Positions 8,936-44,594 of a stretch of 64,000 nucleotides of DNA are shown one piece after another. The DNA lies in the NCBI RefSeq assembly GCF_004324835.1, contig NW_021163190.1, positions 255,242 through 319,241 on the forward strand. The letters are read 5' to 3'. The translations under genes were made by a program, and so were the position numbers. Positions within the stretch are counted from its first letter, which is position 1, and each line of letters opens with the position of its first letter. This DNA is from Dendronephthya gigantea (Eukaryota). The notes under the pieces were generated by a model. It saw only the letters and a program-made list of their open reading frames with translations, searched no databases and had not been told where the DNA came from.

Positions 8936-9240
8936 TTATACCTTAGTTTCACGTTCAAAACGGTCAAATGTCGTCAAAAGCCTTGGGATCACCTCTTCCC
9001 AATTGTTGCCCAACTGTAGTCGGGTGCACAGGCACGGTACCGAGCGGTCAGCGGTCTTTAGCCACGTCATCGCCTTGGTAACCTTCGCGTGCAACTCGGT
9101 ATCAGACCCCACGGGGCACTCCGGCATTTTGAACGGCGGGATAAGTTGAATTTGAAAAGCAAAGCATTTCTTTTGACGTAAATATGCCAAAACCAAAAGG
9201 GTCGCTACCATTTTGCAAAGGGTTTTGAACGTTCGAACAC
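8936..9240 (-). CDS. PARP4: PARP4-like last coding exon (phase-1 acceptor ctgataag|GTGTTCG; stop at 8936-8938)
   Basis: ORF 8936-9211 extended upstream to the acceptor; matches the vPARP C-terminus (LIATMLVLQF...ICPRLELGNDW-like). Confidence 0.7.

Positions 9241-44594: not shown

Follow-up and report, generated by a model that had tools for sequence, protein, structure and literature searches.

The window analysed here is a 64,000-nucleotide stretch of Dendronephthya gigantea DNA with a G+C content of 32-44%, in which reading frames are split and splice sites are canonical. Stop-free segments of its minus strand gave Pfam matches to BRCT (PF16589, E 8.1e-12; aligned with human PARP4 residues 6-94), PARP_reg (PF02877, E 3e-10), PARP catalytic (PF00644, E 3.5e-27), VIT (E 5.7e-41) and VWA_3 (E 3.4e-16) domains, in the canonical order predicted for this strand. 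The catalytic H-Y-E triad (His, Tyr, Glu) aligned with that of human PARP4, and the top PDB matches were the PARP4 entries 8sx1 and 8swy. With exon borders set by homology and splice consensus, 18 exons between 41649 and 22455, all delimited by GT-AG introns, formed a frame of 1150 amino acids without a stop codon. A model composed of these 18 exons, two BRCT exons and the last two exons was compared with human PARP4 (1724 aa). Residues 5-1230 of the model matched human residues 6-1218 as a single HMMER domain (E 2.4e-262), in agreement with the expectation that the joined exon translation would resemble a PARP4 orthologue. A second domain corresponded to the predicted tail, the C-terminal exons matching human residues 1574-1704 (independent E-value 7.8e-10); the final exon by itself matched the human tail with an E-value of 9.5e-5. 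Homologues from Cnidaria, Placozoa, molluscs, rotifers and vertebrates mapped colinearly, and 58 of 120 homologues extended over the last catalytic as well as the first VIT exon. The VIT and VWA parts follow the catalytic domain colinearly, the join between them coming from the gene model and from splice sites conserved in phase among octocorals; in the full-length RefSeq PARP4 proteins of Nematostella, Sycon and Tubulanus, VIT starts at about residue 540-690. Judged by domain order and alignment, the minus-strand locus is an orthologue of PARP4, the vault poly-ADP-ribose polymerase (clade 5 PARPs), the presence of which in this octocoral is expected.

PARP4 is bounded upstream by an eIF2-gamma gene on the same strand, whose C-terminal exon (PF09173, E 4e-24; 45571-45789, minus strand) ends about 1 kb from the PARP4 ATG. 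The far end of the window carries a Misato-like tubulin-domain ORF (63193-63951, plus strand). Bacterial and metagenomic VIT-VWA proteins are 52-63% identical to the VIT core of animal PARP4, an unusually high value for a cross-kingdom comparison.

Table 1. Features of the PARP4 locus and of the window (positions as in the window; a slash marks an exon border)
Feature	Positions	Strand	Remarks
First coding exon, BRCT part 1	44460-44594	-	ATG 44594; aligned from human PARP4 residue 6; donor AAG/gtttgc
BRCT exon 2	43749-43944	-	end phase 1
N-terminal exons, BRCT to PARP regulatory domain	41649-41565, 41330-41196, 40776-40612	-	bird and Desmophyllum PARP4 matches; GT-AG, phase 0
PARP regulatory-domain exons	40204-39884, 39602-39442	-	161-nt exon: length and phase as in Desmophyllum
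PARP catalytic exon 1	38604-38919	-	His and Tyr of H-Y-E
PARP catalytic exon 2	37499-37722	-	catalytic Glu in DEYVVY; phase-2 end; donor AAG/GTAGGA
Intron with nested genes	29672-37498	-	7,827 nt; lineage-specific position
Duplicated block A	33545-36377	-	gene with about 750 nt of 5' and about 460 nt of 3' flank
Copy A	34007-35623	-	intact intronless 538-aa ORF (RING, TRAF-type zinc fingers, coiled coil, Kelch propeller)
Duplicated block B	30123-33043	-	
Copy B, probable pseudogene	30617-32230	-	in-frame TAA 31462-31460, codon 257
VIT exons	29671-29364, 29016-28883, 28558-28394	-	134- and 165-nt exons: length and phase identical in Desmophyllum and Trichoplax
Exons linking VIT and VWA	28003-27893, 27521-27384	-	
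VWA-domain exons	26954-26862, 26752-26585, 25774-25581, 24059-23789	-	
Post-VWA exons	23319-23158, 22754-22455	-	acidic tract; phase-0 end
Candidate paralogous exons upstream of RefSeq start	20968-20909, 20476-20417, 19940-19881, 19171-19034	-	high-scoring, phase 1-1
Pro-rich/FG-like cassette exon array	10348-18322	-	tandem duplicates; phase 1-1 except last (10469-10348), phase 1 to 0
Cassette exons	18131-17967, 17573-17457, 17148-16921, 16750-16574, 15581-15372, 13968-13855, 13618-13388, 12559-12365, 11877-11647	-	symmetric phase 1-1; Pro-rich/FG-like peptide
Last two exons	9738-9636, 9240-8936	-	homologous to human PARP4 C-terminal (MVP-interacting) region; stop TAA 8938-8936
114-bp repeat in PARP4 introns	9791-10336, 23332-23767, 28047-28343, 29023-29321, 38932-39372, 40243-40596		
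114-bp repeat elsewhere in window	45821-45972, 46574-46974, 48370-48578, 55241-55788, 60715-61053		

The intron separating the catalytic and VIT exons is, as predicted, the largest of the gene, the other introns between resolved exons ranging from 109 to 1,521 nt, and two intronless units lie entirely within it on the PARP4 strand. Both had been described as 538-aa genes; this description held for the first (hereafter referred to as copy A), whereas the second (hereafter referred to as copy B) is not intact, a nonsense codon standing at position 257, where copy A has TAT. The units are contained in duplicated blocks with about 90.5% nucleotide identity, their proteins are 86.7% identical, and dN/dS between them is 0.73, a value that does not show strong constraint. 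Copy A is accompanied by a TATA-like element at 35718 and an AATAAA at 33582; in copy B, the TATA-like element is mutated and neither AATAAA nor ATTAAA was found. Copy B would therefore be a decaying duplicate and probable pseudogene, and copy A is presumably transcribed from its own promoter. Pfam searches identified RING and Kelch domains in the nested units, with zf-TRAF and Sina_ZnF matches below the gathering cut-offs and no match to MATH, BTB or BACK. In PDB comparisons, residues 5-143 of copy A matched the RING and zinc fingers of TRAF6 and TRAF5 (E about 1e-8), and residues 252-531, approximately, matched the Kelch propellers of KEAP1 and KLHL proteins. The members of this family are presumed, from these domains, to be RING E3 ubiquitin ligases. 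The products of copies A and B were absent from a public collection of 15 billion proteins that holds the D. gigantea RefSeq proteins, and the copy A gene is thus apparently unannotated; literature searches yielded no description of this RING-TRAF-Kelch family or of this locus.

MITE-like elements with inverted arms of 40-44 nt (GGGGCCGGTTGTTCGAAAGG...) occupy 36934-37397 within the same intron. Similar sequences were found near 42000, 41100 and 18650, related copies in other introns being recognisable by a recurrent 'GPVVSSPFSLNGG' translation.

In octocorals this family is very large; the best 120 matches to copy A, clustered at 90% identity, were all 67-74% identical to it. Its members form head-to-tail, same-strand arrays with a spacing of 3.4-5 kb in Paramuricea clavata and in an ENA assembly. 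When loci and species are compared, conservation over the 150-250 nt preceding the ATG equals that of the coding sequence, and no similarity extends past the stop codon; this pattern is consistent with each unit having its own promoter and 5' UTR. The array was also found at the same place in related octocorals, for which two contigs were reached through relatives of the VIT exon (ENA ERZ25067548 ctg102975 and NCBI GCA_949826985.1 CATKWK010003750.1, from assemblies that share about 96% identity around the VIT exons). In the ENA contig, about 34.6 kb separate the catalytic from the VIT exon, and the intron between them contains at least eight copies, most of them full-length ORFs of 538-565 aa; seven share the strand of PARP4, one of these being frameshifted, and one is antisense to it. 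The NCBI contig has a same-strand 538-aa copy 1.9 kb upstream of the VIT exon. A RING-Kelch gene array was thus present inside the intron in every octocoral assembly examined. In a distance tree, copies A and B were sisters and were equidistant (72-76%) from all other copies, intronic or not. Orthology of A and B to the relatives' intronic copies was therefore not seen, and the topology indicates an array that is old in position and turned over in content. The last 10 kb of the intron also differs between the two related assemblies, with three full RING-Kelch genes in one and one full gene, one partial gene and a GRF-zinc-ribbon ORF in the other, pointing to fast turnover. The local pair would then be one small array of a family that is normally tandem and on one strand. 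As to how the copies arose, they are intronless, as retrogenes are, but the duplicated blocks carry 5' and 3' flanks and a 5' flank is shared across the family; the tandem spacing would favour unequal crossing-over.

The donor at the end of the last catalytic exon reads ...GGA AG/GTAGGA and the acceptor of the first VIT exon reads ...tttttAG/T, the last and first exon bases being 37499 and 29671. As had been proposed, the two sites complete a codon across the intron (AG + T, Ser), and the predicted junction joins an exon ending in ...GGACGTGGAAG to TGAAGATGTTC. Phase agreement is weak evidence by itself, because one in three chance pairings would be compatible. With weight matrices built from the 31 splice sites of the PARP4 gene itself, the donor scored 10.3, among the best in the gene, and the acceptor 6.7, within the range observed, 0.7-14.1; on inspection of the sequence, the catalytic exon contained no other donor compatible in phase with the acceptor at 29671. 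In the related octocorals, the catalytic exon ends in ...CAA GG/GTAGGT, also in phase 2 and at the equivalent position relative to the flanking conserved sequence, after a linker four residues shorter than that of the window. Their VIT exon begins tatAG/G GAG AAT..., encoding (G)ENVLCEPTTAISLDEKTESSDEDE. Nucleotide similarity between the window and these relatives stops exactly at the donor and starts again exactly at the acceptor. The linker 'E(D/N)VL(V/C)EPTTAISLD', encoded upstream of Met 29619, is conserved between them, and its ISLD motif aligned with the PARP4 linkers of scleractinians, frog and fish. No confirmed locus came out of a search of metagenome contigs for relatives of the junction-spanning peptide. 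Since splice sites and phase are conserved, similarity is bounded at the sites and the ISLD linker is shared, the 7.8-kb intron is very probably removed to join the catalytic and VIT exons, as judged from these sequence comparisons.

The PARP4 proteins of Desmophyllum pertusum and Trichoplax were mapped onto their own loci. Intron positions and phases were common to the two almost throughout, including exons of 44, 134, 165, 41 and 93 nt. In both genes, one intron interrupts the frame in phase 2 after QQK(I/L) and another does so in phase 1 within the linker. The octocoral gene has neither of these introns, and its 7.8-kb intron has no counterpart at that position in Desmophyllum or Trichoplax. 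Deep conservation therefore cannot be used in support of this junction. The octocoral intron, in phase 2, lies 26 codons downstream of the first of these ancestral sites, within an insertion of 15-19 residues found only in octocorals among the sequences compared. Identity of the junction intron with the ancestral linker intron was considered and rejected, as both position and phase differ in Desmophyllum and Trichoplax. Several further ancestral introns are absent from octocoral PARP4, the exons of which are sums of two or three ancestral exons: an exon of 316 nt stands for three ancestral exons that add up to 319 nt, one of 271 nt equals three and one of 168 nt covers two. The linker region thus looks like the result of two intron losses and one gain, to the extent that gene structures in these three lineages reveal it. 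It is conceivable, but improbable in our estimation, that this octocoral-specific intron was gained in the middle of an ancient exon by the insertion of gene-bearing DNA that was then spliced out, and that it later became a protected 'nursery' where the array grows and shrinks (two to at least eight copies). Since neither the stony coral nor the placozoan has an intron at this site, comparison with more octocoral genomes makes a dated intron gain testable.

In Desmophyllum pertusum (MU825406.1, 6233-37546), PARP4 is annotated in pieces: one gene of 141 aa with the BRCT domain and another of 782 aa covering PARP and VIT. The exon at 27050-27143 is followed on the same strand by two HlyIII/PAQR-like genes without introns (28880-29968 and 36758-37546), and no further PARP4 exon was found in the next 10.8 kb past this exon. 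Another PARP4 intron may therefore host same-strand guests in this stony coral.

Several repeat families occupy the introns and surroundings of the gene. One, which is abundant, is a 114-bp tandem repeat, with 2.6-4.8 copies per array, 94-97% matches and both orientations, which fills most of six short PARP4 introns, often from within 7-25 nt of the splice site. The same unit flanks orthologous exons in a related octocoral assembly (at about 1590 in one locus and about 9920 in another). As the introns it fills are at ancestral positions, the repeat colonised introns and did not create them, and its role as an 'introner' source of the 7.8-kb intron was rejected, that intron containing no copy of it. 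PARP4 introns also contain a 26-bp minisatellite (33 copies) and a 138-bp repeat, and satellites were identified at 24188-25045, 25837-26548, 48800-50100 and 61571-62757. A composition skew at 48-50 kb had raised the possibility of a third nested-gene copy, which was rejected because the skew is accounted for by a 77-bp satellite array (17 copies).

The 3' third of the locus is annotated differently in RefSeq, where 18284-8938 is a separate gene, 'serine/arginine repetitive matrix protein 1-like' (XP_028415267.1 to XP_028415271.1, four isoforms), with its start at ATG 18284. XP_028415269.1 and XP_028415270.1 mapped to the minus strand as 13 and 12 exons, respectively, with every residue identical; isoform X3 skips one cassette exon and X1 uses an alternative acceptor shifted by 3 nt. 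The cassette exons are tandem duplicates of 195-240 nt, in multiples of three and with phase 1-1 borders, and the indels between copies are likewise all multiples of three. The PARP4 tail is encoded by the last two to three exons of this RefSeq-annotated part.

Whether this part belongs to PARP4 depends on how it is reached from exon 22754-22455. In RefSeq it is an independent gene, and PARP4 would end shortly past 22455, in ...AAHEVC and a stop two codons beyond the exon. The RefSeq models do begin at ATG 18284, and there is a phase mismatch between 22455 (phase 0) and the downstream cassettes (1-1), with no strong exon found to lead from phase 0 to phase 1; the sole bridging exon found, 20957-20909, is in frame but has a weak acceptor (score 1.7). 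On the other hand, the frame upstream of ATG 18284 is open back to an acceptor at 18322 of the matching phase class, high-scoring phase 1-1 paralogous exons precede the RefSeq start, and the tail encoded at the end of the supposed second gene is the C-terminus of the human PARP4 protein. With the bridging exon and a candidate linker exon (42877-42805), a complete in-frame path of 38 exons and 2,138 aa runs from 44594 to 8936, a size near that of PARP4 in Nematostella (2,354 aa) and Sycon (2,302 aa). The only apparent ground for the 'SRRM1-like' name is that these exons are rich in Pro/Ser and of low complexity, and Pfam gave no match in the cassette exons. One gene thus seems more likely than two at this end, fission being a doubtful but serious alternative, and the RefSeq gene is probably a PARP4 fragment. 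The predicted single 36-kb gene is therefore upheld as regards its ATG at 44594 and its stop at 8938-8936, whereas its 3' continuity, across the RefSeq split, is no more than likely.

If the locus were divided at the large intron, a PARP-only gene would end in ...VIGRGR at a TAG just past 37498, Met 29619 would open a second, VWA5A-like VIT-VWA gene, and the Kelch genes would be intergenic. We consider this very improbable. The TAG does follow the donor immediately and in frame in the unspliced reading, but these letters form part of the GTAG donor consensus, and the relatives have the same TAG. A methionine is indeed available at 29619, but no Met occurs between the acceptor and the VIT domain in either related octocoral assembly, so that a self-standing VIT-VWA ORF cannot start there, and yet the 18 codons that precede this Met in D. 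gigantea are conserved in frame. Proteins consisting only of VIT and VWA exist in nature, ATTAAA/AATAAA motifs lie 280-490 nt into the intron, and the lineage-specific intron position would also suit two genes; against these points stand the exact ends of similarity at both splice sites, the linker motif common to PARP4 of other phyla and the PARP4-specific tail that follows the VIT-VWA part. If the intron is accepted, it could still be asked whether both of its guests are dead, as pseudogenes or passengers carried by a transposon. The nonsense codon of copy B, with the loss of its putative TATA-like and poly(A) signals, the dN/dS of 0.73, the absence of both products from public protein collections and the one frameshifted copy in the related array fit this explanation. 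Copy A, however, keeps its 538-codon frame with all RING, zinc-finger and Kelch motifs, together with the conserved 5' flank, the TATA-like element and the downstream AATAAA, and the copies in the related intron are mostly full-length; death of both units is therefore unlikely.

The locus is best explained, with a probability of about 0.82, by a single-copy PARP4 gene spliced across a 7.8-kb intron that hosts a two-unit tandem RING-TRAF-Kelch array. Splicing of the PARP4 pre-mRNA would join 37499, the phase-2 end of the last catalytic exon, to the first VIT exon at 29671 and remove an intron whose guests would be two units of an octocoral-expanded intronless family, each with its own conserved 5' flank. 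The predicted family product combines a TRAF6-like RING and zinc-finger N-terminus with a coiled coil and a Kelch beta-propeller. Copy A would be the intact unit, presumably with its own promoter, copy B its decaying duplicate, and local tandem duplication would account for both the origin and the turnover of the array. For annotation, this reading means that the C-terminal third of PARP4 carries an unrelated 'SRRM1-like' label and that a ligase-like nested gene appears to be missing from the public annotation of D. gigantea. An array of a very large, octocoral-specific family that is conserved in position, with a fourfold variation in copy number, is also a convenient natural system for studying the birth and death of nested genes and interference with the host; the latter is relevant because transcription of PARP4 has to pass the poly(A) site contributed by each same-strand copy.

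Compared with human PARP4/vPARP (PDB 9bw6, 9bw7 and 11jf; catalytic fragments 8sx1 and 8swy), the octocoral protein is alike in domain order from BRCT to VWA and, if the 3' exons belong to it as is likely, in the long low-complexity region and the MVP-interacting tail after it; the model is colinear over residues 6-1218 and 1574-1704. It differs in its longer catalytic-VIT linker with a lineage-specific intron, and in a low-complexity region built from tandem phase-1 cassette exons. The 'SRRM1-like' proteins XP_028415267.1 to XP_028415271.1 are identical to the window exons 18284-8938, and their name ignores the homology with the PARP4 tail.

The nested protein shares with the TRAF family (TRAF6 and TRAF5; PDB 3hct and 7l3l) a RING and zinc fingers followed by a coiled-coil-like segment, but a Kelch propeller replaces MATH/TRAF-C, so that it is not a strict TRAF. 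Among BTB-Kelch proteins (KLHL/KEAP1), the closest propellers are those of KEAP1, KLHL20, KLHL2 and IVNS1ABP; in contrast to these proteins, the nested one lacks BTB and BACK and has a RING fused directly to Kelch, so that ligase and substrate-binding modules would share one chain and not be brought together via Cullin-3. As to the arrangement itself, 12-17% of mouse and human genes host a nested gene, long introns are preferred by nested genes and their orientations are 'broadly similar', same-strand pairs being nearly as frequent as opposite-strand ones (PMC11694760); the statement in the original prediction that same-strand nested genes are uncommon was thus overstated. Almost all coordinates given in that prediction held. 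The locus is an ordinary PARP4 gene with guests in its longest intron, a well-known type of arrangement, and like the mouse and human host/nested pairs it places a complete gene in a long intron of a protein-coding host. Unlike the pairs of that catalogue, its guest is a tandem array of a fast-expanding family, which has kept its position while varying from two to at least eight copies.
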